Below are positions 1,833 through 16,257 of a DNA stretch of 16,328 nt, piece by piece. The number at the start of each line of letters is the position of its first letter. Position 1 is the stretch's first letter. Origin of the DNA: Hadesarchaea archaeon (GTDB lineage: Archaea; Hadarchaeota; Hadarchaeia; Hadarchaeales; Hadarchaeaceae); NCBI GenBank assembly GCA_030619825.1, contig JAUXAS010000011.1:1-16328 (forward strand). The letters are read 5' to 3'. Below the pieces are notes generated by a model. It did not search any database, was not told where the DNA came from, and saw only the letters and a program-made list of their open reading frames with translations. Made by a program: the position numbers and the translations under genes.

Positions 1833-1850
1833 TTAGGCATACCTAAATTT
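1829..1850. promoter_or_regulatory. DtxR-family operator palindrome
   Basis: AAATTTAGG-CATA-CCTAAATTT, perfect 9-bp arms with the TTAGG/CCTAA half-sites typical of DtxR-family boxes, directly upstream of the DtxR gene. Confidence 0.88.
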
Positions 1851-1855
1851 TACCG

Positions 1856-2473
1856 ATGATTACTGAAAGTGTTGAAGAGTATCTGGAGGCGATTTACCGC
1901 CTGGGCGAGCGGGGAGAGGCTGCGACTACTACGAGCGTAGCTAATGAGCTCAAGGTGGCGCCCGCGAGTGCAACCCAGATGCTGAAAAAATTAGCCAAGC
2001 AGAGATACCTAAAGTACACACCCTACCGGGGGGTCTACTTAACACCCAAAGGGAAAAAAATCGGGAAAGAAATTCTGAGGAAGCACCGCGTGATGGAAAA
2101 GTTTCTGAGCATCTTAGGCTTGCCGAAATCAAGGGTTCATAAAGACGCATGTGAGCTGGAGCACCACATCCCTGATGACCTTGAGCGAGCCATCCATCAA
2201 AGGGTCGAAGGTGAAAAAACCCTGCCCCCGGGGGCCCCTAGCGATGTCGTGTCGCTCACCAGCCTTTTGGACGGGCAAAAAGGCGTCATCTCATTCATCG
2301 GGGGCGGGCGGGGCGCTTCCCAGAGGCTTGCCGACCTAGGGCTAACCCCCCGCACGGAGGTAACGGTCGTCAGGTCAGCGCTATTCCGCGGCCCGCTTAT
2401 GGTATCTGTGAGGGGTACCACACTGGCGATCGGTCGTGGCGTGGCGGCCAGAGTTTTTGTGAGAGCGAAATAA
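1856..2473 (+). CDS. dtxR: DtxR/IdeR-family metal-dependent repressor with C-terminal FeoA domain
   Basis: SVEEYLEAIY N-terminus, wHTH, YRGVYLTPKG, RKHRVMEKFL, HKDACELEHH (H77/E81/H95/C99/E102/H103); C-terminal RLADLGL...GPLMVSVRGTTLAIGRGVA is FeoA-like. Confidence 0.93.
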   Translation: MITESVEEYLEAIYRLGERGEAATTTSVANELKVAPASATQMLKKLAKQRYLKYTPYRGVYLTPKGKKIGKEILRKHRVMEKFLSILGLPKSRVHKDACELEHHIPDDLERAIHQRVEGEKTLPPGAPSDVVSLTSLLDGQKGVISFIGGGRGASQRLADLGLTPRTEVTVVRSALFRGPLMVSVRGTTLAIGRGVAARVFVRAK

Positions 2474-2474
2474 A

Positions 2475-4397
2475 ATGTCAACCGCCGAGAAAAAATCCAT
2501 AACGATAGCCCTAGCGGGCAATGCAAACGTCGGAAAAAGCGTAATCTTCAATTATTTGACCGGACTGCACCAACACATCGGAAACTGGCCTGGTAAGACG
2601 GTTGAAAAAGCCGAGGGAACGCTTCACTTTAAGGGGCGCACGATAGATGTCCTTGACCTGCCTGGCATCTATTCGCTGTCCGCCTTTTCGATTGAAGAGC
2701 GGATCTCCCGGGAGTACATCGCGACCGAAAAACCGGATGTCGTCGTAAATATCGTCGACGCCTCAGCACTTGAGAGAAACCTCTTTTTCACCCTGCAGCT
2801 GCTCGAGCTGGAAACGCCGATGATTGTGGTGCTAAATCAGGTGGATATGGCAGAGGCGAAGGGGATAACCATCCACGTTCCCGAGCTACAAAAATCCCTC
2901 GGCATACCCGTAATCCCGACCATCGCTACGAGGGGGACGGGCCTAGATAAGCTACTAAACAAGGCCGTGAAGGTTGCAAAGAGCAAGAAGTTAGCGAGGC
3001 CAGCCAGATATGGTAGGGAAATAGAAGAAAAAATCCGTAGGGTCACAAAGCTCGTGAAAAAGATCCCCATTCAATATCCACCGAGATGGGTTGCGGTCAA
3101 ACTCCTCGAAGGCGATGAAGAGATCAGGAAAATTGTCGGCAGGATTGATCCGAAAATAGTCTCCAGCGCTGAAAGGCACGCTGGGGACTTGGAACGAATC
3201 CACGGCGAGCCATGTTCAATCATAATAACGTCGGAGCGCTACAACATCGCGAACAAAATTGCTAGAAAAAGCCAGCGAATCACTCCCCCTCGTGGGCCAT
3301 CTCTTACGGAGAGATTAGATGCGATGACGACCCACCCCCTCGTGGGCTACCCAATCTTGATCGGCGTCATGCTTCTTGTTCTCTTCACGGTTTTTACCAT
3401 CGGCGGCTACCTAAGCGGGTTCTTCGAGGACGCGATGGAGATAATTCAAGGTGCCTTCGGAGGTGGGGCGGGGGAGGTAATCGGAGAGGGACTACTCGGC
3501 GGATTGATAGCTGGGATAGCCATAGTGCTACCGTTCATCCTGCCTTTTTACCTGATTCTGACCTTCTTGGAGGACTCCGGGTACCTGCCTCGCGCCGCGT
3601 TCATGACTGATAGCCTCATGCACCGCATGGGGATCCACGGCAAAGCGTTCATCCCGTTCATACTCGGCTACGGCTGCAATGTTCCCGCGTGCCTTGGATG
3701 CAGGGTAATGGAGACCGAGCGGGAACGAACGATTGCTGCGTTCGTTGTGACGTTGGTGCCATGTGCTGCCGTGACGGTCGTGGTCTTGGGTTTGGTCGGG
3801 GCGTTTGTAGGAATCCATTGGGCGTTGGCGTTATACTTGCTCAATTTGGTGATTATTTTCATCCTTGGGAAGGTCGCGTTTAAGGTTCTGCCAGGAGAAC
3901 CCATGGGGTTGATCATGGAGATGCCTCCTTACCGAAAGCCGCACGCGCGCTCGGTGCTCAAGGAAACTTGGATGAGGGTAAAGGATTTCGTTTACATCGC
4001 GTTCCCGCTGATAATCATTGGTAGCGTGGTGCTCACGGGGCTAAAGGTTGGTGACCTGTTGGAGCCGATCGGGGATGTCATGAGCCCCGTCACGGTTGGG
4101 TGGCTGGGGCTGCCCGCGATCACCGGCGTCCTGCTCATCTTTGGGGTTCTCAGAAAGGAGCTCACGCTGGTCATGCTCGCGACCCTCATGGGCACGGCGA
4201 ATTTTGCAACGGTCTTAACTCCAACCCAAATGATTGTCTTCGCTATAGTCGTGATGTACTACATCCCTTGCGTCGCAACTATCGCCGCGTTGGTGAAGGA
4301 GCTGCGGTGGAAGAAGGCGGCCTACATCACGGTGTTCGAGATAGCGTTTGCCCTCCTCTTGGGTGGCATCGCGTTCAGACTGCTGACGTTGGTGTAA
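2475..4397 (+). CDS. feoB: Ferrous iron transport protein B
   Basis: G motifs GNANVGKS, NWPGKTVE, DLPG, NQVD; LEDSGYLPRAAF, GYGCNVPA, IMEMPPYR, YIPCVAT; multiple TM helices. Confidence 0.97.
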   Translation: MSTAEKKSITIALAGNANVGKSVIFNYLTGLHQHIGNWPGKTVEKAEGTLHFKGRTIDVLDLPGIYSLSAFSIEERISREYIATEKPDVVVNIVDASALERNLFFTLQLLELETPMIVVLNQVDMAEAKGITIHVPELQKSLGIPVIPTIATRGTGLDKLLNKAVKVAKSKKLARPARYGREIEEKIRRVTKLVKKIPIQYPPRWVAVKLLEGDEEIRKIVGRIDPKIVSSAERHAGDLERIHGEPCSIIITSERYNIANKIARKSQRITPPRGPSLTERLDAMTTHPLVGYPILIGVMLLVLFTVFTIGGYLSGFFEDAMEIIQGAFGGGAGEVIGEGLLGGLIAGIAIVLPFILPFYLILTFLEDSGYLPRAAFMTDSLMHRMGIHGKAFIPFILGYGCNVPACLGCRVMETERERTIAAFVVTLVPCAAVTVVVLGLVGAFVGIHWALALYLLNLVIIFILGKVAFKVLPGEPMGLIMEMPPYRKPHARSVLKETWMRVKDFVYIAFPLIIIGSVVLTGLKVGDLLEPIGDVMSPVTVGWLGLPAITGVLLIFGVLRKELTLVMLATLMGTANFATVLTPTQMIVFAIVVMYYIPCVATIAALVKELRWKKAAYITVFEIAFALLLGGIAFRLLTLV

Positions 4398-4412
4398 GGA
4401 AACAACTAATAA

Positions 4413-4426
4413 TGTGCAATACCACT
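4413..4426. promoter_or_regulatory. Putative operator (TGTGC-N4-GCACA family), copy 1
   Basis: TGTGCAATACCACT, 12/14 match to the 5701 palindrome; follows AT-rich TAATAA, upstream of the DUF134 gene. Confidence 0.6.
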
Positions 4427-4443
4427 TTAATTTGGGTGCTAGC

Positions 4444-4794
4444 TTGTACCAGTGGCGTCGCGGTCGGCGAAGGGGGCCCGGAAGGCCGATGAAACCTAGG
4501 TTCTTGGGCTTCAGGCCCGGAGCGGTGACATTCATGCCATCCGCTCCAATGGGGCCACCAATCGTTGCGGGTGAGCCAATCTACATGACCTATGACGAGT
4601 ACGAGGCCTTCCGCCTGATTTATCACGAAGGGCTGAACCAGGAGGAGGCCGCCAAGCGGATGAAAATTTCGCGTGGGACGGTGTGGCGATGCTTGGAGAG
4701 TGCAAGGGATAAAGTTGCCTGCATGCTCGTCGAACGCCGCCCGCTTGTGGTCACGCCTGCGCCTCCTCAGCCTCCTGAGGAGACAGGCACTTGA
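4444..4794 (+). CDS. DUF134 (UPF0251) family predicted DNA-binding HTH protein
   Basis: GRPMKPR...MTYDEYEAFRLIYHEGLNQEEAAKRMKISRGTVWRCLESARDKVACMLVE fits the DUF134 pattern; TTG 4444 with GGGTG at 4434-4438 is preferred over GTG 4414, which lies inside the operator. Confidence 0.9.
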   Translation: MYQWRRGRRRGPGRPMKPRFLGFRPGAVTFMPSAPMGPPIVAGEPIYMTYDEYEAFRLIYHEGLNQEEAAKRMKISRGTVWRCLESARDKVACMLVERRPLVVTPAPPQPPEETGT

Positions 4795-5654
4795 GCCAAG
4801 TCGATGGGATGCGGCTCACGGTTCTGGTCGACGATTCCAAGAACCCGACCCGACCCGAACTCACCGCCAAGCACGGGCTGGCCTTCTTCATCGAGCTAAA
4901 AGCTGGTAAGGACACAACTAATTTGCTGATGGATACCGGACCGTCCGCAGATGTCGTCTTACAAAATGCCCAGAGGCTCAACGTCGATCTGAAAAAGGTT
5001 GATTCGATTGTGCTGAGCCACGGACATTACGATCATACGGGTGGACTCTTGGGCGTCCTAAAACACATCGGCAAAAAAGTGCCCGTGATGGCCCATCCAG
5101 AGGCGCTTGAACCAAAATTCGCGGCGAGGAAGAAGCGTCTCAAGAAGGCCGGCATTCCTTTTCAGGTTTCAGAGTTGGAGAAATCAAGCGGCATCTTAAC
5201 TCTAAAACGGGGGCCGACTTCTGTAGCACCTAGGATTTGGGTGAGCGGGGAAATCAAAAGAGCCAGTCCATTTGAAAAGGTTAAAGGTTTCAAAACCGTG
5301 AGGAGAGGCAAGCTCGTCAAGGATTACATGCCGGATGATCAGGCGCTTTTCGTGGTGGTTAAGGGGAAAGGGCTGGTGGTCGTCACGGGGTGCGCTCACG
5401 CGGGGTTGATAAACACGATTAAGCAGGCTCAAAGGGGGGCGGGTTCAAGCGGTGTGCATGCAGTCGTTGGTGGGTTTCACCTAGCTGGTGCAAGCGCGGG
5501 AAGGACAAAAGCGACCATCGAGGAGCTCCAGAAAGCTGGTGTGAAAGCCGTCATGCCATGTCACTGCACCGGAAAGAAGGCAATCGCGAAATTCATCAAG
5601 GCATTTGGTGAAAAGTGCAAGCAGCTTAGAACCGGCGATGTGGTCACGTTTTAA
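4791..5654 (+). CDS. MBL-fold metallo-hydrolase (COG1237; MptH-like family)
   Basis: HGLAF, LMDTG, LSHGHYDHTGG, DDQAL, TGCAHAG, GGFHL, PCHCTG; TTG start overlaps the DUF134 stop. Confidence 0.92.
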   Translation: MSQVDGMRLTVLVDDSKNPTRPELTAKHGLAFFIELKAGKDTTNLLMDTGPSADVVLQNAQRLNVDLKKVDSIVLSHGHYDHTGGLLGVLKHIGKKVPVMAHPEALEPKFAARKKRLKKAGIPFQVSELEKSSGILTLKRGPTSVAPRIWVSGEIKRASPFEKVKGFKTVRRGKLVKDYMPDDQALFVVVKGKGLVVVTGCAHAGLINTIKQAQRGAGSSGVHAVVGGFHLAGASAGRTKATIEELQKAGVKAVMPCHCTGKKAIAKFIKAFGEKCKQLRTGDVVTF

Positions 5655-5686
5655 GGTTGAAAAAATCTCGCTTGTTTTTAAATGCA

Positions 5687-5702
5687 CCGAAAAGTTTTTA
5701 TG
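5687..5702 (+). promoter_or_regulatory. Putative BRE + TATA box
   Basis: CCGAAAAG-TTTTTATG upstream of RBS AAGGTGA (5741-5747) and ATG 5754. Confidence 0.65.
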
Positions 5703-5736
5703 TGCAATAGCACAAATTTAGAAATGCGATAGCACA
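5701..5736. promoter_or_regulatory. Tandem operators (TGTGC-N4-GCACA family), copies 2 and 3
   Basis: TGTGCAATAGCACA (5701-5714, perfect 5-bp arms) and AATGCGATAGCACA (5723-5736), 22 bp apart; direct repeat TGCRATAGCACAAAT at 5703-5717 and 5725-5739. Confidence 0.75.
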
Positions 5737-5753
5737 AATAAAGGTGATAACGA

Positions 5754-6074
5754 ATGTGGTGGCCTAGAGGTCGGAGATGCTGGTGGTGGCACATGAATCC
5801 ATACATGATGTATCCACCCTATCAGCCATACGTGCAAGCGCCGCAGCAACCCTCGCAACCTGCGCAGCAACCCGCACAACAACCCCCAGCGGCACCTTAC
5901 TACCCGCTCCCGCCGTTCGTGCCTCCACCGACGCCCGAGCAAGAGATCGAAGCGCTGGAGGCATACAAAGCCGAAATCGAAGAGGAGCTCAAAGGGATCG
6001 AGGCCAGGATAAAAGAGTTGATGGAATCCCTGACCAAAGAATCCGGCGGCCAACCATCCGAAACCGGGAAGTGA
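5754..6074 (+). CDS. DUF5320-like protein: Trp/Arg-rich head, Pro/Gln/Tyr low-complexity middle, C-terminal coiled coil
   Basis: MWWPRGRRCWWW; QQP repeats; PEQEIEALEAYKAEIEEELKGIEARIKEL; strong RBS. Confidence 0.8.
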   Translation: MWWPRGRRCWWWHMNPYMMYPPYQPYVQAPQQPSQPAQQPAQQPPAAPYYPLPPFVPPPTPEQEIEALEAYKAEIEEELKGIEARIKELMESLTKESGGQPSETGK

Positions 6075-6078
6075 TGAT

Positions 6079-6408
6079 TTGAAGCTCAAAGTGGCCGTTG
6101 CTACAAAGGGGCCCAAAGGTTTGAAGGACGAGGTATCCTATGAATTCGGCAGGGCTCGAACTTTTACAGTTATCGACCTCGAAGACGATCAGGTCAAAAA
6201 CGTGAAAGTTGTGAATAATCCAGCAGCCTCGTATGAACACGGGGCAGGGCCGATAGTCGTAAAGATGCTCGCTGACATGAAAATCGAAGTCGTGGTCGCG
6301 GGTGAATTCGGTCCAGGAGCTTCGGTGCTCCTCAAGGATAAAAATATTCGCGCGGCCAAGGTTAAAGCCGGGACAAACGTCAGTCGATCTGTGAGTATAA
6401 TTAGGTAG
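6079..6408 (+). CDS. NifB/NifX (Nitro_FeMo-Co) family protein
   Basis: KVAVAT...VSYEFGRARTFTVID...NNPA...HGAG...GEFGPGA; TTG start. Confidence 0.9.
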   Translation: MKLKVAVATKGPKGLKDEVSYEFGRARTFTVIDLEDDQVKNVKVVNNPAASYEHGAGPIVVKMLADMKIEVVVAGEFGPGASVLLKDKNIRAAKVKAGTNVSRSVSIIR

Positions 6409-6435
6409 GGGTTGGGTGTAATTCGAGGCAGACCC

Positions 6436-7323
6436 ATGAAAGTAGCAATACCTTCCAATATGCCAGGCGGGCTGGATGCCAAGATATTCCCCCATTTCGG
6501 CAGGTGTGATGTATTCACGGTAGTTGAAATTAAAAACGGCAAAATAGTGGGCGGGAGCACCATCGACAACCAAGGGGAGCATTTCGGTTTTGATAAAACA
6601 CCAGCAGAAATCTTGGTATCGAGCGGCATAGATGTGGTAGTAGCACAGGGAATGGGCCCCAAGGCTCTAGAGCTCCTGGGACAGAGCGGCATCAAAACAT
6701 ATTCCACCTCGACCAAAACGGTTGGGGAGGCCGTACGTGAGCTGATCAAGGGTAAGGCTAAGCTGGCCACGCCCGAGGAAGCTTGCAAGGAATCAAGGTC
6801 ATCAACTGGACCACCTCCGACCGCTCCCATGCCTCCCTTTGGCCCTGGGATGGGCCGTGGGATGGGAAGAGGAATGGGGAGGAGAATGGGGCCCTATTCA
6901 CACGCCCCCGCTTACCCGCCAATGGCCCCGCCAATGCCGTATCCTCAACAACAAATGCCAAAGCCTTCGCCCCCACCCACAGGCCGCTTTAAAGTGGGTG
7001 TCGCAAGCCAAGGAACTGGGGGGCTCGACGACATGGTATCGCCGATCTTCGGCAGGTGCCCAAGCTTTACCATCGTCGAGATTGAAGGGAAAGAGATTAA
7101 GAATGTAAAAGTGGTGCCGAATCAATTCGTTTCTGCACCTCGCGGTGTGGGAATCGCTGTGGTCCAGATGTTGGCAAGCGAAGGGGTGAAATTTATTTTG
7201 GCCGGACGATTTGGCCCTTGGGCATCCTCGACCTCTAGCCAATTCGGTATCCAAATGGTCATGGTTCCGCCTGGCGTGAGGATTAGGGACGCTATTAACC
7301 AATACCTCATCGGTTCACGCTAG
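6436..7323 (+). CDS. Tandem two-domain NifB/NifX family protein with Pro/Met/Gly-Arg linker
   Basis: Domain 1 MKVAIP...HFGRCDVF...GMGPKA; domain 2 KVGVAS...IFGRCPSF...GRFGPWA; ATG 6436 with GAGG upstream. Confidence 0.9.
   Translation: MKVAIPSNMPGGLDAKIFPHFGRCDVFTVVEIKNGKIVGGSTIDNQGEHFGFDKTPAEILVSSGIDVVVAQGMGPKALELLGQSGIKTYSTSTKTVGEAVRELIKGKAKLATPEEACKESRSSTGPPPTAPMPPFGPGMGRGMGRGMGRRMGPYSHAPAYPPMAPPMPYPQQQMPKPSPPPTGRFKVGVASQGTGGLDDMVSPIFGRCPSFTIVEIEGKEIKNVKVVPNQFVSAPRGVGIAVVQMLASEGVKFILAGRFGPWASSTSSQFGIQMVMVPPGVRIRDAINQYLIGSR
6847..6891 (+). repeat. In-frame 12-bp degenerate tandem repeat encoding (GMGR)3-RMG
   Basis: GGGATGGGCCGT GGGATGGGAAGA GGAATGGGGAGG AGAATGGGG. Confidence 0.85.
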
Positions 7324-7334
7324 GGTGCAAATAA

Positions 7335-8231
7335 TTGAAGGAAATTGTGGTAGTGAGCGGGAAAGGTGGAGTTGGTAAAACCACGGTTGCTGCATCGCTC
7401 GCGGTTTTTTTGGCCAAAACCGGGACTAAAATCGTTGCAGCGGATGCGGATGTCGATGCACCGGATCTCTTGTTGGCGCTCGGCGGCGGAAGGACGATTT
7501 CCTCAACCGAGATCAAAGCTTCTGAAAAAGCAACGATCGACGAGTCGAAATGCACTGAATGTGGTAATTGCGTCAGCGCATGCCCGTTTGGTGCAATTGT
7601 GATGGATAACCACCGCCCAACCGTCGTGCGACTGATGTGCGAGGGCTGCGGCGTGTGCAAGGTTGTCTGCCCCGTCGATGCGGTTGAGGTGAAAAAAGCG
7701 GTGACGGGAACCCTGAAAATCGAGGATACTAAGTACGGATTTCCATCGGTGACTGGGTACCTGAGGCTTGGCGAACACAATTCGGGATACCTCGTAGCGA
7801 GCGTAAAGAATTCCGGGAGAAAGACGGCTGAGGATTTAGGGGCAAAGGCGCTCGTGGTCGACGCCGCACCTGGCATAGGTTGTCCAGTGATCGCTTCGAT
7901 TACAGGGGCTAGCTATGTTATTGCCGTTACCGAGCCGACGCCAGCCGCCAAGCGGGATCTGGAACGCTTGGTCAAAGTCATAAAGCACTTCGGGGTTCCG
8001 GTGGGGGTGGTGATAAACAAGGCGAACCTTTCGGACGACTTCAGGGGCGTGCTTGAGGACTGGGTAAAACATGAGCTAGGTTATCAAATTTTAGGCGAGA
8101 TCCCCATCGACTATGAAGTTGTTAAAGCTCTAGTGAAAATGGTGCCGGTCACCGAGTTTAATCCAAACGCTGAAGCATCGAAGATCTTGACTGCGATAGC
8201 CAAACGCGTGAAGGATGAGGTCTTACCATGA
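7335..8231 (+). CDS. MinD-superfamily P-loop ATPase with inserted 2x[4Fe-4S] ferredoxin domain (COG1149)
   Basis: SGKGGVGKTT, DADVDAPDL, CTECGNCVSACP, CEGCGVCKVVCP, DAAPGIGCPV, VTEPT, INK. Confidence 0.93.
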   Translation: MKEIVVVSGKGGVGKTTVAASLAVFLAKTGTKIVAADADVDAPDLLLALGGGRTISSTEIKASEKATIDESKCTECGNCVSACPFGAIVMDNHRPTVVRLMCEGCGVCKVVCPVDAVEVKKAVTGTLKIEDTKYGFPSVTGYLRLGEHNSGYLVASVKNSGRKTAEDLGAKALVVDAAPGIGCPVIASITGASYVIAVTEPTPAAKRDLERLVKVIKHFGVPVGVVINKANLSDDFRGVLEDWVKHELGYQILGEIPIDYEVVKALVKMVPVTEFNPNAEASKILTAIAKRVKDEVLP

Positions 8232-9181
8232 AGTCTGGTGGGGGGGCATCAGCGAAATTACTCAGGAGAAAGCGCGTGAGCGTGCCCGTGATAGCAGTCA
8301 CCGGTGGGAAGGGCGGCACAGGCAAAACCACGGTTGCGGTGAATTTAGCCGTGGGGCTGAGCATGAAAGGTTCCAAGGTCATGTTGGTTGACGCAGATGT
8401 TGATGGCCCTTGTTGCGCGATGTTGCTTGGAGCAGAGTTGGACGCCGGCGAAGAGGTTAGAATGTTTAAGCCGGTGATAGATGCGGCGAAGTGCACCAAG
8501 TGTGGAAAGTGTGTGGATGTCTGTCGGGAACATGCGTTGGTGGGTCTTGAGGGGCAAGTCCCATCACTTTTCGAAGAACTTTGCTCCGGGTGCAAAGCGT
8601 GCCACCTCGTCTGTGAAGTTGACGCCATAAAGAGCGGTCAGAAAGTTCTCGGTACTATCTACATCACAGATTCAAATGGGATTAAACTGGTGGTGGGCGA
8701 ACTCAAGCCGACTGAGCCGAGGTCGCCGATCGTGGCGCGTGCGACCATGCTCAGAGCCGCTGAGGAGCTTGAGCATGACAAATACGATGTCGCAATCGTC
8801 GACACCGCTCCGGGAATTCATAACGTGGTGGCTCAAGCCCTTTGGGAAGCCGACCTAGCGCTGGCTGTGACCGAGCCGACCCCACTTGGAGCTCACGATC
8901 TGGGGTTCATGTTAGATCTCACTGAGGAACTGGGGCTGCCGACTGAGGTCATCCTGAACAAGGCCGACATCCCGGGCGGTTTAAAGGACGAGGTGGTGAA
9001 GACAAGCCGCGATCGGGGGGTCGGGATCGTTGCGGAGATACCGATGGACGAAGAGCTGTTGCGCTCATACGTTTCGGGTGAACCGCTTGTGAGAAAATCC
9101 CCCAAGAGTCCCGCGGGGGTTGCACTATTAGCTCTGGTTCCGCACATTCGTGAAATGTTTGTAAAAGGAGGTGAAACCTGA
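8228..9181 (+). CDS. Second COG1149 ferredoxin-inserted P-loop ATPase (start may be GTG 8276)
   Basis: GGKGGTGKTT, DADVD, CTKCGKCVDVC, CSGCKACHLVC, DTAPG, VTEPTPLG, LNK; ATGA overlap at 8228, alternative AGGAG + GTG 8276. Confidence 0.92.
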   Translation: MKSGGGASAKLLRRKRVSVPVIAVTGGKGGTGKTTVAVNLAVGLSMKGSKVMLVDADVDGPCCAMLLGAELDAGEEVRMFKPVIDAAKCTKCGKCVDVCREHALVGLEGQVPSLFEELCSGCKACHLVCEVDAIKSGQKVLGTIYITDSNGIKLVVGELKPTEPRSPIVARATMLRAAEELEHDKYDVAIVDTAPGIHNVVAQALWEADLALAVTEPTPLGAHDLGFMLDLTEELGLPTEVILNKADIPGGLKDEVVKTSRDRGVGIVAEIPMDEELLRSYVSGEPLVRKSPKSPAGVALLALVPHIREMFVKGGET

Positions 9182-9420
9182 TGGCGCAACCACCCATCCC
9201 ACCACCGCTGCCAACTAAAAAGTTTCAATGTTTTGCCTGCGGGAACATCATAGAGGTACCCCGGGGCATGCCTAAGCCAGCGGCATGTCCTAGATGCGGT
9301 GCTCCGCTCATGGCGATTCATCGCGTGGACAAGGGGCCGCCAGGTGGAAGAGGCGCGGGAAGGCGCGGTGCTGGTGGCCCCGGCGGAGGGCGCGGCAGGG
9401 GGCCACGTTGGTCTCAGTAG
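9181..9420 (+). CDS. Small zinc-ribbon/rubredoxin-like protein with Pro-rich head and Gly/Arg-rich tail
   Basis: CFAC-x15-CPRC; tail GGRGAGRRGAGGPGGGRGRG; RBS GGAGGTGA; TGATG coupling to the upstream ATPase. Confidence 0.82.
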   Translation: MAQPPIPPPLPTKKFQCFACGNIIEVPRGMPKPAACPRCGAPLMAIHRVDKGPPGGRGAGRRGAGGPGGGRGRGPRWSQ

Positions 9421-9450
9421 GCTTAGCCTCATTGAGATTTGAGATGCTGA

Positions 9451-9471
9451 GTTAATCTAGGTTAATCTAGA
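9451..9471. promoter_or_regulatory. 10-bp tandem repeat forming a DtxR-box-like near-palindrome
   Basis: GTTAATCTAG x2; contains TCTAGG-TTAA-TCTAGA (9456-9471), same TAGG-N4-yCTA geometry as the 1829-1850 operator; upstream of the ZIP gene. Confidence 0.5.
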
Positions 9472-9522
9472 GGAAAAAATCAGGTGAAAAATTAAAAACA
9501 GAACTTGAAGGAGGAAAGCTGA

Positions 9523-10248
9523 ATGAACGATCTTTTGTTAATACTGTTCTTGATCTTTGTTGGGCAAACCCTAGGATCGTTGATAGGTCTCATCAAAAAA
9601 CTAGGCAAAGTCGCTTTATACGGCTCTTTATCTTTTGCTGCGAGTATGATGGTCGCCATATCCTTTCTTCAGCTGATACCAGAAGGCTTAAAATACACGC
9701 CTTTATTTTTGATAGCAATCTCGTTTTTCGTTGGGATAGCGATAATGCGGATAGTGGATCGTTTGCTACCTCACATCAATCCTGAGCTAATTAAAAAAGA
9801 AAAGCCCTCTATTGAGAGAAGCGTCACCATGTTGGTCATCGGCATAGCCTTGCACAATATTCCAGAAGGTTTGGCAATCGGGGTTGGTTTTGCGGTAACT
9901 GCGGAATTGGGAATCGCTATTGCGTTAGCCATTGCAATTCAAGATCTTCCGGAAAACGTTGCGACAATTGTTCCATTATACGGTTTGATCAAGAAAAAAG
10001 CGAAGTCATTTATCATCCTTATTACCACGGTACTGTTCGAGGTAGCTGGATTTCTCATAGGATATTTAGCCTTGGGAGGAGCATCGTTGAGCTGGCTGGG
10101 GGCTTCACTGGCGCTTGCAGCAGGATTTATGGTTTACATCTCTGTCGAGGAATTGATACCTTCAGCACAGGTAAAGACGTACCCCAAAATGGCGGCGGCG
10201 GCAATGGTTTTAGGTGTGATGTGTGTTCTATTAACAAGTTTGATATGA
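9523..10248 (+). CDS. ZIP (ZupT/GufA) family divalent metal transporter
   Basis: Multiple TM helices; IALHNIPEGLAIG, AIAIQDLPE, AAGFMVYISVEELIP; RBS GGAGG. Confidence 0.93.
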   Translation: MNDLLLILFLIFVGQTLGSLIGLIKKLGKVALYGSLSFAASMMVAISFLQLIPEGLKYTPLFLIAISFFVGIAIMRIVDRLLPHINPELIKKEKPSIERSVTMLVIGIALHNIPEGLAIGVGFAVTAELGIAIALAIAIQDLPENVATIVPLYGLIKKKAKSFIILITTVLFEVAGFLIGYLALGGASLSWLGASLALAAGFMVYISVEELIPSAQVKTYPKMAAAAMVLGVMCVLLTSLI

Positions 10249-10303
10249 TTAAATCGGTGAAAGAGAAATTAGGAAGAAGTCTTGGATAATTCGGTGAATA
10301 AAA

Positions 10304-11143
10304 ATGAAAACCTATCTAGATTGCATTCCGTGCTTCGTGAGGCAGGCTTGGGAAGCGAGCAAGATGGCTACGGGGAACAAAATTAAACAGGAAAAAACAT
10401 TAAAGGCGGTTTTATCGGAGCTGGAGAAGACTTCATTAAAAAATAAGATACCGCCGCAGATCGCTCGCAAGGTTCATCGCATAGTCAGGGAGGTAACAAA
10501 AAACAATGACCCTTACAAGAAAGTGAAAGATAAATACAACAGAAAAGCTCTAAAAATGTATCCAAGTCTTAAACGAAAGGTCGCCAAGTCTAAAGATAGA
10601 TTGCTAACGGCAACGAGGCTTGCTATAGCTGGAAATATCATCGACTTCGGGCCCGGTTCGAAATTCGATCTCGAGAAAACTATAGAAGATGTTTTAGCTC
10701 AGGATTTCGCGATAAATCATTTTAACCAGTTTAGAAAAATGTTGAACAGTTCTAAAAAAATTTTATATCTGGGAGACAATGCAGGTGAAATTGTTTTTGA
10801 CCGCATTCTCCTAGAAGAATTGAAGGATAAAGAGATCACATTTGTCGTCAAGGGAGGGCCCATCATTAATGATGCAACGGTTGAGGATGCGAGGTTCGTA
10901 GGGATAGACAAAATTGCGAAGATTGAAGTGGTTAGCAACGGTGATCCCGACACGGGACCAGCTAGACGGTCGAAGGAATTTATCAACAAACTGAAAGACG
11001 CGGATCTCGTGATCAGCAAGGGGCAAGGCAACTACGAGGCCTTAAGTGAAGTGGATGCAGATATCTTCTTCTTACTCAAGGTGAAGTGCCCATTGATTGC
11101 TAGGGATATAGGTGCTAAGGTCGGCAATATCATAATAAAATGA
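10304..11143 (+). CDS. DUF89 / ARMT1-like damage-control phosphatase (subfamily I-like)
   Basis: N-terminal DCIPC, DPY, AIAGNIIDF, GDNAGEIVFD, PIINDAT, ISKGQGNYE, KVKC. Confidence 0.93.
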   Translation: MKTYLDCIPCFVRQAWEASKMATGNKIKQEKTLKAVLSELEKTSLKNKIPPQIARKVHRIVREVTKNNDPYKKVKDKYNRKALKMYPSLKRKVAKSKDRLLTATRLAIAGNIIDFGPGSKFDLEKTIEDVLAQDFAINHFNQFRKMLNSSKKILYLGDNAGEIVFDRILLEELKDKEITFVVKGGPIINDATVEDARFVGIDKIAKIEVVSNGDPDTGPARRSKEFINKLKDADLVISKGQGNYEALSEVDADIFFLLKVKCPLIARDIGAKVGNIIIK

Positions 11144-11167
11144 TGCTTGGCTCACTAGGCGATCAGG

Positions 11168-12355
11168 ATGTTAGGAGTCAAGGCCGAAGCCATCACCGCG
11201 GAAGAAATGGCCAAGGTGGATCGAAAAGCAGCGGAATTCGGGATTCCTAGCATCCTGCTCATGGAAAACGCCGGGGGCGTTGTCGCAAGGATCATAACAG
11301 AAAAATTCGGTACCAAATTGAAGGTGGTAGTCTTTGTTGGCACGGGCAACAATGGCGGGGATGGGCTCGTCGCTATCAGACACTTGATGAGTAAAAGGGC
11401 CAAAGTAAATGTCTTCTTGATCGGGGATCCGGGGGATATCCGTACTGAAGAAGCGCACCTGAACTGGAATGTGATACAAAAAATGAGGCAAAATGTCAAG
11501 ATCCATGTGGTTAAAAGCATTCCTGACCTTAAGGGGGTAGCGCGCTACCTAAAGCGTGCAGATGTGATTATCGATGCTATGCTCGGAACTGGCCTAAAGG
11601 GTCCGCTCAGGGAGCCTTTCGCTTCCGCGGCGCGCTTGGTGAACGTGTCGAAGGTTCCCGTAGTTTCGGTAGACGCGCCCACCGGGTTGGATCCATCGAC
11701 CGGCGAGGTACACGGGGTCGCGGTCAAGGCAACTTGCACTGTGACTTTTCACAGGATGAAAATGGGATTTCTCAAGGCGAAGGGGTACGTGGGCGAGGTC
11801 ATAGTGGCCGATATCGGGATCCCGCCGGAAGTCGAGGCTGCAGCCATCGGCAAGCGCCGGCGTTTACGGTGGAGAGTTGGGGAAGCACCGAAAGAAATCC
11901 CGAAGTTAGTGAGTGCGTGTCTTCTAGGAGTTAACTGTAGGTACAATGGTCAAAACAACCTTAACGAGAAAGTAATGCAGCTAGCCGCGAAGGAAGTGTT
12001 GATCCCCGTCTGCCCCGAGCAGCTCGGTGGGCTTGGAACTCCTCGGGAGCCCATGGGGATAATCGGCGGAGGTGGTTCTGAGGTCTTGGATGGAAAGGCG
12101 AGGGTCATAAATGAGAGCGGCAGGAACGTGACTGAAAACTTAGCAAGAGGTGCCGAAGAGGTTTTGAAAATCGCGAGGTCGTTAGGCGTAAAGGGGGCTA
12201 TCTTGAAGGCGAGGAGCCCCTCATGCGGCTGCGGGAAAATTCACGATGGGACGTCCCCCAGCAGGTTGGTCAAGGGGGACGGGGTCACGGCCGCTTTGTT
12301 GAAGAGGAATGGCATCCAGGTAGTCACGGAGGACGATCTTGATAGAATAATATGA
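11168..12355 (+). CDS. nnrE: Fusion: NAD(P)H-hydrate epimerase (YjeF_N/NnrE) + DUF523 (TudS-like thiouracil desulfidase)
   Basis: aa 1-~220: LMENAG, GTGNNGGDG, IIDAMLGTG, SVDAPTG, TVTF, DIGIP; aa ~247-395: LVSACLLGVNCRYNG, VCPEQLGGLGTPRE, LKARSPSCG, GDGVTAALL. Confidence 0.88.
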   Translation: MLGVKAEAITAEEMAKVDRKAAEFGIPSILLMENAGGVVARIITEKFGTKLKVVVFVGTGNNGGDGLVAIRHLMSKRAKVNVFLIGDPGDIRTEEAHLNWNVIQKMRQNVKIHVVKSIPDLKGVARYLKRADVIIDAMLGTGLKGPLREPFASAARLVNVSKVPVVSVDAPTGLDPSTGEVHGVAVKATCTVTFHRMKMGFLKAKGYVGEVIVADIGIPPEVEAAAIGKRRRLRWRVGEAPKEIPKLVSACLLGVNCRYNGQNNLNEKVMQLAAKEVLIPVCPEQLGGLGTPREPMGIIGGGGSEVLDGKARVINESGRNVTENLARGAEEVLKIARSLGVKGAILKARSPSCGCGKIHDGTSPSRLVKGDGVTAALLKRNGIQVVTEDDLDRII

Positions 12356-12375
12356 AAGGAAGGTCTTTCACGTAG

Positions 12376-12843
12376 TTACACCTTCCCCTCCAGCCAGCCA
12401 ATTTTGACGTTGTTTTTCTGATCAAACTTCGGGACATATGGTTTGATGTCTAGAAGAGGGGTGCCGTCGAGCATGTCGATACCCCTCACCTTCAAGATAT
12501 TTCCCTTGCGTTCCAACAGCTCCACGATAGTGAGCCCTATTGGATTTGGCCTGTTCGGGGATCTCGTGGCGAAAAGTCCGCGCGGGGTATCATCCAGATA
12601 AGGTTTTACCAGAAGCCCAAACGAATTTAGGTAATGTTCTTTTTTTACCGAGCGCTTGACAGATTTGTGAAACATGTATAAAATTATGAGGTGAGAAAAA
12701 CCCTCGACATCTTTCAGCCCTCCCTCGTACTCCTTAAAAACTTCGATTTCGCCGACTTCCTTTGATTTGTAAGCTTGGTGAGGCGCTTCCCCGTCCTTTT
12801 TGTATGGTGTGTGGATTATCCCTATAGGTTTTAATCTCCTCAT
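12376..12843 (-). CDS. tsaA: tRNA (N6-threonylcarbamoyladenosine(37)-N6)-methyltransferase TrmO/TsaA-like (single domain)
   Basis: PIGIIHTPY, GLKDVEGFSHL, RGLFATRSPNRPNPIGL, DMLDGTPLLDIKPY; ATG 12843 overlaps the stop of the upstream gene (ATGA). Confidence 0.92.
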   Translation of the reverse strand: MRRLKPIGIIHTPYKKDGEAPHQAYKSKEVGEIEVFKEYEGGLKDVEGFSHLIILYMFHKSVKRSVKKEHYLNSFGLLVKPYLDDTPRGLFATRSPNRPNPIGLTIVELLERKGNILKVRGIDMLDGTPLLDIKPYVPKFDQKNNVKIGWLEGKV

Positions 12844-13487
12844 TCTATCACCAGCCCCACACCACACCTCACGTATTGTTTCGGGAACGCGTGCGCTAAC
12901 TCCCTTTTGTATGATGTACAGTGGCAGGGGGAAATCAATTTAACGCCTTTTAGAAGGGCGAAATCACTAAATCCGTGGAAACCTCCAATAACGCCGTAAA
13001 TATTGCCAAACTTTGATGCCACATTCATGATGTCATGCACTCCGGAGTGGGAGCAGCCGGTGATCATAAACACGCCTCTTTTGTCCAAACAAATTAACGA
13101 TTGTTCTTTGATGTAAGTGCCCAACCCACCTGTTGTGAACACGCCTTCGCGTATCCACATCGGTTTCCGGACATCAACCAGCTTTGGTTTCGCGGGGATT
13201 TGGTTTTTTAATGCAGTATAAAACGATGGCAGGACATACACGGAAATATCCTGATCCTCTTCAAGCAGGTCCGATAAACCACCGGTGTGATCCCCATGTC
13301 CGTGCGACAATACAACAGATTCTATGTTGCTCAGATTGATGTCCAATTTCTTCATATTGTGTAACAAGGCTACGCCATCGCCACCCGTGTCAAATAAAAT
13401 GTCATTATTAATTAAACAGGAAAAACCCCAGCCCGCCGTCAATCCCCTCTTTGACACTTCGTTGTCGTAAACTACTGTTATTTTCAT
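12840..13487 (-). CDS. Second MBL-fold metallo-hydrolase (COG1237)
   Basis: MKITVVYDN, WGFS, LFDTG, LSHGHGDHTGG, TGCSHSG, GGFH, PCHCT; ATG 13487 with AGGAG RBS. Confidence 0.9.
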   Translation of the reverse strand: MKITVVYDNEVSKRGLTAGWGFSCLINNDILFDTGGDGVALLHNMKKLDINLSNIESVVLSHGHGDHTGGLSDLLEEDQDISVYVLPSFYTALKNQIPAKPKLVDVRKPMWIREGVFTTGGLGTYIKEQSLICLDKRGVFMITGCSHSGVHDIMNVASKFGNIYGVIGGFHGFSDFALLKGVKLISPCHCTSYKRELAHAFPKQYVRCGVGLVIE

Positions 13488-13524
13488 GCCCGCGAGTCTC
13501 CTTTCGTAATTTTGTACAGTAAAG

Positions 13525-13532
13525 TTTATATA
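13525..13532. promoter_or_regulatory. Putative bidirectional TATA box
   Basis: TTTATATA on + (AAAG upstream) and TATATAAA on -; roughly 25 bp from the RBS of each divergent gene. Confidence 0.6.
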
Positions 13533-13534
13533 CA

Positions 13535-13556
13535 ATTATGTGCATATGCTCATAAT
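13535..13556. promoter_or_regulatory. Operator palindrome (TGTGC-N4-GCACA family), copy 4
   Basis: ATTATGTGCATATGCTCATAAT, 22-bp palindrome with one mismatched pair; core TGTGC-ATAT-GCTCA. Confidence 0.8.
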
Positions 13557-13569
13557 GGAGATGAAGAAA

Positions 13570-14064
13570 ATGGCTTACGGTCAGGGAGGTTGGAGAAGAA
13601 GGAACATGTATTACCTCACCGGTGTGCCGGGATGGATGAGGTTCGGATATTCACCGGGATGGGTAGGCAGAAGTCCAACAGGATTGTCGCCAACCGCGCA
13701 ATACTTGATGCAGGCTGGGCAGGTGCCTCAACCTTACCCAGCACAAGTACCAGCACAAATTTCAGTTCCCACTCATGGGGACTGCGCTAATTTCAGGGAT
13801 GGGTTCTGCACATTAAACGGTGCCGCCGTGGATCCTAGCGCCCCCGTGTGTCCAAGCTTCACACCGCAAAGTTCCACTCCAATACCACAGGCACCGCCAA
13901 CGCAACCCATGTTCCAAGTACCCGTCGGTTCTCCTCCAGCGCAAATGTCTCAGGTACCCAAAGAACAGGAGATTCAGATGTTAGAGGGTCAATCAAGAAT
14001 GGTGGAGCAACAACTAGAACAGATCAAGAAAAGGCTTGAAGAACTCAAAAAGGAGGTGAAATGA
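13570..14064 (+). CDS. DUF5320 family protein with inserted His/Cys motif
   Basis: GGWRRRNMYYLTGVPGWMRFGYSPGW head; P/Q-rich; C-terminal KEQEIQMLEGQ...LEQIKKRLEEL; ATG 13570 with GGAG RBS (earlier in-frame starts lie in the operator or RBS). Confidence 0.87.
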   Translation: MAYGQGGWRRRNMYYLTGVPGWMRFGYSPGWVGRSPTGLSPTAQYLMQAGQVPQPYPAQVPAQISVPTHGDCANFRDGFCTLNGAAVDPSAPVCPSFTPQSSTPIPQAPPTQPMFQVPVGSPPAQMSQVPKEQEIQMLEGQSRMVEQQLEQIKKRLEELKKEVK

Positions 14065-14504
14065 TGCCGTTCGGCTGGGGAAGAGGATTTGGTAGAGGAT
14101 TCGGATGGGGGGGCAACCCCTACGTCTGCGCACGTTTCCCATGGCTTCCGAGGCGGTGGTGGACCGGAATGTACGGCCCCATGACACCTTTTACGGGAGC
14201 ACCGGGGATGCCCTACACGCCGTATGGCCAATATGGCACGTACGCAACGTCAGCCCCAACAGCTGCACCATGGACAAATACACCGTACTACGCGCCACCC
14301 TACAGCACGTATGCACCACCAACCACAGCAATGCCGAGCATGACCTATCCATCGCCATATGCACCATCACCTTACCCAACAGGCGCGGAGATCCCTCAAA
14401 TTCCGAAGGAACAAGAAAGACAAATGCTTGAGGGTCAGGCGACAGCGCTCCAGCAGCAATTGGACCAGATCAAGAAGAGGCTTGAAGAGCTCAGCAAAAT
14501 GTAG
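14061..14504 (+). CDS. DUF5320-like protein (Gly/Arg/Trp head, Pro/Tyr/Thr-rich middle, coiled coil); start 14061 or 14064
   Basis: GWGRGFGRGFGWGGNPYVCARFPWLPRRWW; C-terminal KEQERQMLEGQ...LDQIKKRLEEL; RBS AGGAGGTGA. Confidence 0.85.
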   Translation: MMPFGWGRGFGRGFGWGGNPYVCARFPWLPRRWWTGMYGPMTPFTGAPGMPYTPYGQYGTYATSAPTAAPWTNTPYYAPPYSTYAPPTTAMPSMTYPSPYAPSPYPTGAEIPQIPKEQERQMLEGQATALQQQLDQIKKRLEELSKM

Positions 14505-14596
14505 GGCTCCAACAGCCTTATCAGCGAGTTCGACAACTGGGGCGAAGAGTACTACAATACGTGTAGCCTCATCAAATCAGATAGACAAATACTTAT

Positions 14597-14610
14597 TGTG
14601 CAATCGCCGA
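14597..14610. promoter_or_regulatory. Putative operator (TGTGC-N4-GCACA family), copy 5, degenerate
   Basis: TGTGCAATCGCCGA, 11/14 match to the 5701 site, directly after AT-rich AAATACTTAT and upstream of mrp. Confidence 0.5.
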
Positions 14611-14623
14611 AAAGGAATTTTGA

Positions 14624-15484
14624 ATGGGAGTGAAGCAAGTGGAAGGAAGGATGAAAGAAATAAAGGAGCAGGAGAAGCGCATCAAAATACGGATGGCCAA
14701 AATCAAGCATAAACTGGTGATACTGAGTGGAAAGGGCGGAGTCGGCAAGAGTACTATCACCGCTAATTTAGCCATCGCATTGGCACGCAAGGGTCACAAG
14801 GTGGGTGTTTTAGATATTGACATTCACGGCCCAAGCATCCCCAAAATACTCGGCATAAGGGGGCAGGAGTTGACCGCAGGGCGGCTTGAAGGCGTGGGCA
14901 TCTTCCCGGCCAAAGGACCGCTCGACATCAAAGTCATCTCTATGGATTTCTTGCTTCCGAGCGATGAAACTCCAGTCATCTGGCGCGGCCCCATGAAGAT
15001 GGGCGTGATCAGGCAGTTTCTGGCGGACGTAGCATGGGACAACCTAGATTTTCTGCTTGTAGATGTACCTCCAGGCACTGGCGATGAACCCCTTAGCTTG
15101 ATGCAGTTGTTGCCCTGCATCGACGGCGTTATTATCGTGACTGCTCCTTCTGAGGTTTCCCAAATCGTCGTCAAGAGGGCCGTCGGATTTACAAGAGAGT
15201 TGCACGTGCCTGTGCTAGGTATCGTTGAAAACATGAGTGGGTTCGTTTGTCCAAAGTGCGGGGCAGAAGTTGATATTTTTGGGAGCGGGGGAGGTCAAAA
15301 AATAGCGGGAGAACTGGGAGTGCAATTCCTCGAAAGGATTCCAATCGATTCAAAGATATGCGAGGATTCAGACAGAGGAGCACCCTTCATCATCGAGCAT
15401 GCCGAAACTCCAGCAGCCAAGGCCTTCATGCGAGTGGTGGACAAAGTGGAGGGGTATTTAGAACAACAGGGAGTGCAGGCTTGA
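14624..15484 (+). CDS. mrp: Mrp/NBP35 (ApbC) Fe-S cluster carrier ATPase
   Basis: SGKGGVGKST, DIDIHGPS, IWRGP, DVPPGTGDE, VENMSGFVCPKCG; start could be ATG 14651. Confidence 0.95.
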   Translation: MGVKQVEGRMKEIKEQEKRIKIRMAKIKHKLVILSGKGGVGKSTITANLAIALARKGHKVGVLDIDIHGPSIPKILGIRGQELTAGRLEGVGIFPAKGPLDIKVISMDFLLPSDETPVIWRGPMKMGVIRQFLADVAWDNLDFLLVDVPPGTGDEPLSLMQLLPCIDGVIIVTAPSEVSQIVVKRAVGFTRELHVPVLGIVENMSGFVCPKCGAEVDIFGSGGGQKIAGELGVQFLERIPIDSKICEDSDRGAPFIIEHAETPAAKAFMRVVDKVEGYLEQQGVQA

Positions 15485-16257
15485 TCGTCGACGAGTTATT
15501 GGGTCTGGTCGGGGAGCGGAGAAGCCAGCTAGAAGACCTGACGCTCTCGAGGGTATGCGTGAGCCTCTGCTATACCGCGGTGATGCTCGATAACGGCTAC
15601 GTTGGGCTCTGCCATACGCCTACTGAGGACATTGCACACACTCATTGGGGCCGCAGGCGGGACTTCCACGGCTTCAAGGCCTTGGAGATCACCCGCCTGG
15701 CGAATTCGCTTGATATGATTGAGAAGACAGTTGGCATCACGACGTTGAACGCCCTCTCACAGTACCTGATGGACTCCGATGGTTACGAGCGGCAGTTTGG
15801 AATGGATGCCTTTGATGCGATAGATGTGAGGAAGGAAGACAGCGTCGCGGTGGTTGGGTACATAAGGCCCCTAGTCGGGAAGCTGAGGGCGAGGGCCCGG
15901 GAAGTCCACGTTTTCGAGCGCAACCCCCAGTTGAGGGGGGATGCTCTGCCAGATACTTTTGTCGACTCGATATTGCCGAAAGCGGATGTCGTGGTTATAA
16001 GCGGGTCGAGCTTGGTCAACGGAACGCTCGATAGGTTGCTCGAGCTATCCAAAAGAGCTAGATTCGTGGTTTTTGCAGGGCCAACGGCCAGCACTTTGCC
16101 AGAGCCTCTTTTCAAGCGGGGTGTAAGCGTCGTGGCGGGTGTTCACGCGAAAGGTCCTAAGGTGGTAGATGCAGTAGCCGAGGCCAAACCATTTGTGGCA
16201 TTCAAAGAGCTTGTGGAGAAGTATATTTTAAAGAATGAAAACAGCCTGAAGGGGTAA
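15481..16257 (+). CDS. DUF364 (with DUF4213-like N-terminus) Rossmann-like putative metal-chelating protein
   Basis: YTAVML..GYVGL, VGITTLNALSQ, VAVVGY, ADVVVISGSSLVNGTLDRLL, GPTAS; TTG 15481 overlaps the mrp stop, with GGGAGTG upstream. Confidence 0.85.
   Translation: MIVDELLGLVGERRSQLEDLTLSRVCVSLCYTAVMLDNGYVGLCHTPTEDIAHTHWGRRRDFHGFKALEITRLANSLDMIEKTVGITTLNALSQYLMDSDGYERQFGMDAFDAIDVRKEDSVAVVGYIRPLVGKLRARAREVHVFERNPQLRGDALPDTFVDSILPKADVVVISGSSLVNGTLDRLLELSKRARFVVFAGPTASTLPEPLFKRGVSVVAGVHAKGPKVVDAVAEAKPFVAFKELVEKYILKNENSLKG

Follow-up and report, generated by a model that had tools for sequence, protein, structure and literature searches.

An archaeal gene cluster with IssA-type and ORP-type proteins and its possible part in iron-sulfide handling

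Contig JAUXAS010000011.1 of a Hadesarchaea archaeon (assembly GCA_030619825.1; genome of 0.99 Mb, 89% complete), analysed at its full length of 16,328 nucleotides and called the window here, carries a block of genes (4444..16257) for NifX-type proteins, MinD-like ATPases with [4Fe-4S] motifs, an Mrp/ApbC carrier and DUF5320-like proteins with Gly/Arg and aromatic segments (Table 1). We propose, with somewhat more confidence than doubt, that this is an accessory cluster of the ORP/IssA type, in which iron sulfide is sequestered in particles and remobilised into Fe-S clusters. It likely serves to sequester and detoxify iron sulfide and to recycle part of it, and not to mature one dedicated enzyme. 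The cluster is a variant of partly known systems. The role of IssA as a store or a detoxifier is disputed and the function of ORP is unsettled; this locus and its relatives tie both together, allow DUF5320 to be described concretely, from its fusions, as an IssA-type tail with a coil, and provide DUF134 with a candidate operator. If the multi-protein Fe-S particle proposed below is real, it would be a means, widespread among anaerobes, of dealing with iron sulfide.

According to PMC5524996, IssA joins a PF02579-type domain to a Pro-rich region and a Gly/Arg/aromatic tail and forms thioferrate particles of 20-300 nm; the tail, conserved in chemical character and not in sequence, is proposed to bind the anionic Fe-S polymer (thioferrate), and the apo domain stays monomeric before the addition of Fe/S. 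Exactly three PF02579 domains were found in the present genome, one in 6079-6408 and two in 6436-7323. Like IssA and SipA, the window proteins combine PF02579 with Pro-rich and Gly/Arg/aromatic segments, a basic isoelectric point (pI) and few cysteines: values of 9.60 with 0 Cys and 9.68 with 3 Cys compare with the published IssA bounds of pI >=9 and <5 Cys. Thermococcales SipA-like proteins end in GMGRG repeats, the same as in the linker of the tandem NifX protein, and domain 2 of the latter is 42% identical to a SipA-like protein of Thermococcus onnurineus. A tree computed quickly from 191 NifX domains has a clade of 68 rows (97% in the Shimodaira-Hasegawa-like approximate likelihood ratio test, SH-aLRT) that holds domain 2, the orthologues of the single NifX protein, the Thermococcales SipA-like proteins and most fusions of a NifX domain with tail and coil; window domain 1 lies elsewhere. 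The best PDB match of the tandem protein is MTH1175, with the ORP protein 2WFB at E 1.2e-8, and AlphaFold predicts two folded domains joined by an unstructured linker (119-176). In T. onnurineus SipA (TON_0919) and a nearby ATPase (TON_0916) are both sulfur-induced (PMC4463584), growth of M. voltae on pyrite raises its IssA-clade proteins (PMC9431491), and an IssA homologue is listed for one of two Hadesarchaeota genomes (PMC8351635). A published primer for the P. furiosus issA locus had 0 matches in metagenome contigs, and our protein search returned Thermococcales SipA-like proteins, none of them named IssA among the 120 matches listed. The window differs from IssA/SipA in that its further tails sit on separate DUF5320 chains with coils; the IssA particles are reported to be homomeric.

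The DUF5320-like proteins are best read as detached IssA-type tails with a coil, because the DUF5320 body is fused behind an IssA-clade NifX domain in many genomes. In these fusions the NifX domain is followed by a GMGRG tract, a Pro-rich stretch and a coil as in the DUF5320-like proteins of the window. They occur at 7 of 88 loci anchored on the ATPases (sample 1; 21 Hadarchaeota, 67 other, 10 of 18 stretches from one search having been removed as duplicates) and at 18 of the 34 loci of >=6 kb in a second sample, for which a SipA-like protein served as anchor (80 metagenome loci). When a fusion served as query, PF02579 and PF17253 (DUF5320) stood in one chain in 63 of 120 matches listed (hand count), a figure biased by the query that gives spread and not frequency; our own coil profile was found in 59 of 120 matches listed. 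Tract and coil of four fusions scanned with Pfam align to PF17253 from positions 20-33 to 99, three of them over the cut-off. Free DUF5320-like genes were found at 30/34 SipA-anchored, 19/21 Hadarchaeota and 21/67 other ATPase-anchored loci. The three window proteins themselves score 27.4, 26.6 and 21.7 bits (cut-off 27) with the C-terminal coil only, and their nearest atlas clusters are DUF5320. They share with the family a Gly/Arg/aromatic N-terminal part, a Pro/Tyr linker and a C-terminal coil, but their N-terminal motifs (FPWLPRxWW, TGxPGW) are those of divergent subtypes, and the coil alone matches the model. These motifs are also present in loci of bacteria and other archaea; in DUF5320c C22, F25-R30, W32 and W33 are >=90% conserved among 34 aligned homologues, retrieved by a search that favours common words. 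An AlphaFold monomer of DUF5320c is predicted to be disordered apart from one C-terminal helix (115-145), with no confident fold for the FPWLPRxWW motif (predicted local distance difference test, pLDDT, about 60); its 114 N-terminal residues contain 24 aromatic residues and 5 Arg. A literature search by name found no paper on the function of DUF5320, and none linking it to IssA or ORP was found in a search that left subscription journals mostly outside.

Several variants of these proteins were seen in passing. Close relatives have, between operator and DUF5320a, an extra coil-less Trp/Gly/Arg-rich gene (L001:6608-6904) with GPWPGRGPFS and FPWLPRWWW motifs and no Pfam match, which is absent from the window (5654-5754), L019 and L020. 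The three-Cys insert of DUF5320b (HGDCANF...C...C), possibly a small metal-binding module, is also present in the NifX-tail-coil fusion P0084 and in a separate open reading frame (ORF) in L052. Bacterial-type loci (L157:5387-5611, L165, L167, L173, L176, L178) encode another DUF5320-like subtype with a GTGP/GRG N-terminus and a four-Cys zinc-ribbon-like end, without coil.

The distribution of the Gly/Arg tracts follows certain protein types. With a threshold of >=10 Gly+Arg per 15 residues, tracts occur in 4 of 12 cluster proteins examined, namely DUF134 (10), the tandem NifX protein (11), the zinc ribbon (13) and DUF5320c (10), and in 10/1051 predicted proteins of the genome, a lower bound as the gene caller missed three low-complexity window genes. 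The single NifX protein, both ATPases, Mrp, DUF364 and the metallo-beta-lactamase-fold (MBL) protein examined are without tract. With a threshold of >=9 per 15 residues, sample 1 had tracts on 48/153 NifX proteins (about five rows from Syntrophus-type loci, on a very long branch, may be misassigned), 25/61 DUF5320-like proteins, 8/10 zinc ribbons and 20/45 DUF134 proteins, and on 0/165 ATPases, 0/33 Mrp, 0/13 DUF364 and 0/26 MBL; sample 2 had them on 73/133 NifX, 51/97 DUF5320-like and 9/14 DUF134 proteins, 0/51 ATPases and 0/23 Mrp. Neither any of the 216 ATPases nor any of the 56 Mrp proteins of both samples has a tract, and the cluster carriers are thus not RG-tagged. The tracts are short, about 8-20 residues. 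That of DUF134 is an arm directly N-terminal of the conserved G-R-P-x-K-P-R in a helix-turn-helix (HTH) protein, most simply a DNA-contacting arm. The Gly/Arg-rich tails of the cluster most likely grip an iron-sulfide polymer, as proposed for IssA, rather than act as entry tags to a protein droplet of the eukaryotic kind.

The second known system that the window resembles is the ORP complex of D. vulgaris Hildenborough (Orp3/4/5/8/9). Common to both are an adjacent pair of MinD-like ATPases with two [4Fe-4S] motifs each, a NifX-type domain (2WFB), an Mrp carrier and several co-regulated units. Both window ATPases have a P-loop with deviant Walker A and two CxxCxxCxxxC motifs; the Mrp/ApbC protein matches PF10609 at 322.9 bits (over the cut-off) and shows the deviant Walker A GKGGVGKS and CPKC. 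In PMC6345978, Orp3 and Orp4, with two [4Fe-4S] motifs each, were purified together with the NifX-type Orp8 and could be loaded with clusters by MrpORP in vitro; the role of the complex is described as unclear in PMC8359166. The MrpORP model NF041136 is matched in halves by separate genes at 356.9 bits, below its cut-off of 450, Mrp covering 1-249 and the NifX proteins 265-363, whereas D. vulgaris has an MrpORP fusion. Control of the window cluster appears to be by DUF134 and TGTGC-N4-GCACA sites, that of D. vulgaris is by OrpR/sigma54, and no OrpR/sigma54 gene is present among the window proteins, the part of the genome searched for OrpR. The window has three DUF5320-like genes and Gly/Arg tails; Orp9 is without these. 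Since the MrpORP fusion, the OrpR control and the C-terminal Gly-rich tail of IssA are not found here, we do not file the cluster as ORP or IssA proper and suggest, by analogy, that it works like them. A C-terminal amphipathic helix as a membrane anchor of the ATPases was considered and set aside as uninformative, the Mrp control (0.81) exceeding both ATPases (0.63, 0.46).

A 20-bp palindrome (TGTGC-N4-GCACA type, consensus TTATGTGCAATTGCACAAAA) stands before four transcription units. With a weight matrix the four window sites are the top four of 17 genome matches of >=11 bits, a ranking that is partly circular as these sites seeded the matrix. Among the 67 non-Hadarchaeota loci, which were outside the matrix training, a site of >=17 bits was found in 20/20 with a GRP-type DUF134 (from only a few lineages) versus 3/47 others. 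A plain pattern search with <=3 mismatches gave 19 matches versus 11.6 expected, a number reached by 9 of 200 shuffles and barely above chance; the case for an operator therefore rests on the weight matrix and the placement in other phyla. The palindrome tracks the GRP-type DUF134 subtype, which probably binds it, and its common occurrence points to co-regulation of the four units. The position of predicted sites at or just after TATA-like elements suggests repression. The uptake genes seem to be separately controlled: dtxR-feoA/feoB has a different, perfect palindrome, ATTTAGG-CATA-CCTAAAT (1831-1848), with a weaker copy at 1807, and degenerate TAGG-N4-CCTA-like sites precede the ZIP gene (9420-9470). 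Sites of the TTTAGG-N4-CCTAAA type are presumably DtxR operators (DtxR boxes). Our literature search on DUF134 together with NifX returned NifX papers only, among the matches listed. Asgard loci (L040:7847-8284, L043, L046, L049, L051, L071) have two DUF134 subtypes, an MPRP subtype whose C-terminal zinc ribbon is weakly similar to the free zinc-ribbon peptide of the window, and a GRP subtype preceded by operator sites in tandem, spaced by about 23 bp.

Within the phylum the cluster is patchy, the ATPase pair being present in 19/61 genomes (11/26 near-complete ones). A DUF5320-like match occurs in 17/19 Hadarchaeota genomes with the ATPases versus 5/42 others, kin not being independent. None of the four enzyme families tested follows the distribution of the cluster, in agreement with an accessory role: CODH/HCP was found in 6/19 cluster-bearing versus 14/42 other genomes, the NiFe family in 53/61 and AOR in 57/61 genomes, mostly without cluster, and the nitrogenase-type PF00148 was not found in the window genome. 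We also considered that the cluster replaces SUF, as SufB is missing here. This was rejected because SufB is present in 13/19 cluster-bearing genomes (26/42 others) and the window genome has IscU/NifU; SufB/D was not found in it. In genus g4, SufB was found in 0/7 and NifU in 6/7 genomes, which suggests that Hadarchaeota lineages have each exchanged one Fe-S assembly system for another.

On this basis we envisage the following course of events. The four units would be expressed under the common palindrome, with DUF134 as the probable binding protein. As modelled on IssA, the IssA-clade NifX domains would bind iron and sulfide, and cationic Gly/Arg/aromatic tracts would wrap the anionic Fe-S polymer. 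The DUF5320 proteins may represent the tail-plus-coil portion of an IssA-like protein, encoded as a chain of its own; by gathering several tails into a bundle, the coils would coat or cross-link the particles. No NifX protein of this genome has a coil, so that a coil-mediated recruitment of NifX proteins cannot apply here and co-assembly would go through the common Fe-S polyanion. By analogy with ORP, the untagged Mrp and the ATPase pair would take up [4Fe-4S] clusters, and their use of ATP would remodel, mobilise or position the Fe-S material. The poorer growth of an issA deletion strain in high sulfide, described in PMC8219758, favours detoxification.

A number of observations weigh against this proposal. 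Immunoprecipitation of IssA brought down no partner protein, which argues against mixed particles there (PMC5524996), and even in IssA itself binding of thioferrate by the tail is only proposed. According to PMC8219758, iron of the thioferrate type also arises when IssA is absent, does not serve again as a source of iron and gave no growth in iron-depleted medium, so the remobilisation step is weak. In the window, Gly makes up 10% and 12.5% of the last 40 residues, below the >=20% of the published IssA tail, and the tract of the tandem NifX protein is internal, between its two domains, instead of C-terminal. The NifX tree was built from few columns in a quick search, with stand-ins for P. furiosus IssA, which is itself not in the tree. 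Finally, only about half of the DUF5320-like and a third to half of the NifX proteins pass the tract cut-off, and DUF5320a, whose coil is acidic, is nearly devoid of a Gly/Arg tract.

An extension of the proposal, which we hold to be rather unlikely, is a shell-less iron-sulfide organelle of anaerobes in the form of a mixed protein-mineral coacervate. IssA-type NifX domains would nucleate thioferrate; the DUF5320 paralogues, as detached tails on oligomerising coils with an own Cys/Trp motif per subtype, would cross-link it and act as McdB-like adaptors; the Fe-S-bearing MinD-type ATPase pair would position or dissolve the particle, and Mrp would export clusters. The likeness is to carboxysome positioning by McdA/McdB, where a ParA/MinD ATPase (PMC10554743) works with a small partner with basic disordered region and coiled coil. 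It is an analogy only: no homology was seen, the window ATPases have Fe-S motifs, and the cargo would be Fe-S material.

An earlier note on this DNA, made from the sequence alone, had proposed that the DUF5320 proteins form a multivalent scaffold or condensate, likened to FET-family proteins, that recruits RG/Pro-tagged cluster carriers. We consider a FET-like liquid condensate of this kind, held together by Tyr/Trp-Arg contacts and coils, improbable; the idea of a multivalent scaffold survives in part. FET-type scaffolds have a long Ser/Gly/Gln/Tyr prion-like domain, extended RGG boxes and folded RNA-binding domains. The window proteins have aromatic and Arg/Gly-rich disordered segments as well, but their tracts are far shorter, their disordered regions (62-130 residues with 3-6 Arg each) are Pro-rich and not Ser/Gln-rich, and they carry conserved Cys/Trp motifs and no RNA recognition motif or other RNA-binding domain. 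Parts of the idea have held: the disorder of aromatic-rich DUF5320c with its single helix is predicted, DUF5320-like genes do accompany the ATPase pair, and the low-complexity composition, whose lack of conservation the note had named as refuting, is conserved among homologues in both locus samples. A condensate of bacterial McdB formed through disordered region and coiled coil is on record (PMC10554743), and the tailed relative IssA does build large particles (PMC5524996). The recruitment of tagged carriers has not stood, as the ATPases, Mrp, DUF364 and the single NifX protein are untagged here and in homologues, as are the MBL proteins. All six Gly/Arg stretches named in the note are in frame, yet WWPRGRRCWWW (0) and GGWRRR (7) fall below 10 Gly+Arg per 15 residues, and WRRGRRRGPGR is the arm of the HTH protein DUF134. 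The DUF5320 motifs (C-x-x-FPWLPRxWW) are moreover conserved as sequence and not as composition alone, and the tail of IssA is explained as a polyanion binder on a domain that is monomeric without Fe/S. Literature searches on archaeal condensates, phase separation or RGG with iron-sulfur found only unrelated work.

Three other readings deserve mention. NifX carriers, Mrp and ATPases could build or deliver a complex metal-sulfur cluster, destined for one enzyme or else for the ATPase pair, with the tails being secondary. We regard such dedicated maturation as doubtful, even though the NifX family plays a part in nitrogenase systems. In its favour, homologues of Orp8 carry a bound Mo-Cu-S cluster, and Orp3/Orp4 can be loaded by MrpORP in vitro (PMC6345978); the HFGRC motif of domain 1 also resembles the Di-Nase motif of MrpORP. 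None of the families tested (CODH/HCP, NiFe, AOR and PF00148) emerged as a client, which leaves the maturation role given in the earlier note unsupported, and the cluster does not replace SUF. It is quite improbable that the tracts bind RNA or G-quadruplexes and that the small proteins regulate the cluster post-transcriptionally. A motif search marked DUF134 and DUF5320 proteins of M. mazei, by their RG motifs, as candidates for G-quadruplex binding (PMC7565180), and fusions of the zinc ribbon to DUF134 proteins exist, but the former evidence is a motif scan only, such a tract also follows Fe/S-binding NifX domains in one chain, and the particles of IssA hold iron and sulfur. Even less probable is a function in cell division or shape, with the MinD-like pair in spatial control and its Fe-S clusters as redox switch. 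Inactivation of orpR leads to morphological defects, the division role being the authors' hypothesis (PMC8359166), and MrpORP is polar (PMC6345978); against this, the pair was not found in 42/61 genomes of the phylum, including a same-genus member of 3 contigs and 94% completeness, and its neighbours are metal and sulfur genes.

The gene content was examined by Pfam scans of 23 and NCBIfam scans of 20 ORFs of the window. These confirmed the list of the earlier note (three NifX-type domains, two ATPases with 2x[4Fe-4S], Mrp/ApbC, zinc ribbon, DUF364, ZIP), and with it the link to Fe-S chemistry; FeoB does adjoin, directly upstream of the cluster, and the window is indeed free of nitrogenase and hydrogenase structural genes, PF00148 not being found in the 89%-complete genome either. 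The description as uncharacterised and without an assigned function overlooked ORP and IssA. The linkage of iron uptake to the cluster is mostly local. The closest relatives of the first ATPase are from Hadesarchaea/Hadarchaeota loci (89-96% identity), and a public DNA run covered 30/30 bins, so the window is not an assembly artefact. Gaps of 4, 27, 11, -4 and -1 bases from DUF5320a to the zinc ribbon are consistent with one operon. The whole block comprises several units: TrmO and MBL lie on the minus strand in its middle, ZIP, DUF89 and YjeF-DUF523 are interspersed, and DUF5320b/c and Mrp-DUF364 are further units. A public RNA run gave 3 short contigs over the window (4660-4723, 5726-6253). 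The start of DUF134 is a TTG, where the relative L027 has ATG.

Table 1. Genes and predicted regulatory sites of the window
Feature	Position	Strand	Remarks
Iron-uptake unit, DtxR-FeoA then FeoB	1831..4397	+	own palindrome; FeoB in 12/88 loci
Operator-like site	4410..4429		18.3 bits, before DUF134
DUF134 HTH protein, GRP subtype	4444..4794	+	Arg/Gly arm; candidate regulator
MBL-fold hydrolase	4791..5654	+	Pfam
Predicted operator site	5698..5717		28.7 bits, strongest in genome; weak second copy 5720-5739
DUF5320-like protein a	5754..6074	+	Trp/Arg/Cys N-terminus, Pro/Gln/Tyr linker, C-terminal coil
Single NifX-type (PF02579) domain	6079..6408	+	no tail; orthologues in clade of SipA-like proteins
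Tandem NifX-type protein	6436..7323	+	domain 1 HFGRC type; Pro-rich GMGRG-repeat linker; domain 2 SipA-like
MinD-like ATPase 1	7335..8231	+	two [4Fe-4S] motifs, Orp3/Orp4 type; without Gly/Arg tract
MinD-like ATPase 2	8228..9181	+	two [4Fe-4S] motifs; 34% identical to ATPase 1
Zinc-ribbon peptide	9181..9420	+	2 x CxxC, Gly/Arg tail; weak likeness to ribbons fused to DUF134 in Asgard loci
ZIP (ZupT-like) metal transporter	9523..10248	+	accessory; in 6/88 loci
DUF89/ARMT1-like damage-control phosphatase	10304..11143	+	accessory; domain scans
YjeF_N (NAD(P)HX epimerase)-DUF523 (2-thiouracil desulfurase family) fusion	11168..12355	+	accessory; in frame
TrmO/TsaA-family protein	12376..12843	-	recurrent, 15/88 loci
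Second MBL-fold hydrolase	12840..13535	-	divergent from DUF5320b; start not fixed
Predicted operator site	13536..13555		25.0 bits, just after TATA-like TTTATATA, between divergent MBL and DUF5320b
DUF5320-like protein b	13570..14064	+	RNMYYLTGxPGW, conserved; Pro/Gln linker; small insert with Cys; coil at the C-terminus
DUF5320-like protein c	14064..14504	+	GWGRGFGRG tract; C-x-x-FPWLPRxWW, nearly invariant; linker rich in Pro/Tyr; helix 115-145
Predicted operator site	14594..14613		19.8 bits, before Mrp
Mrp/ApbC Fe-S carrier ATPase	14624..15484	+	PF10609
DUF4213/DUF364 protein	15481..16257	+	start TTG 15481; domain scan

Among the accessory genes, the YjeF_N-DUF523 fusion is also present in L019, L021 and L023, and L020 has DUF523 alone. 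At the other end of the window, three ORFs without Pfam match lie at 2-1072 on the minus strand, and an ORF similar to P-loop nucleotide kinases, with weak matches only, is located at 1100-1810, 5' of dtxR. The G+C content is 62% in the first kb of the window and about 53% elsewhere.

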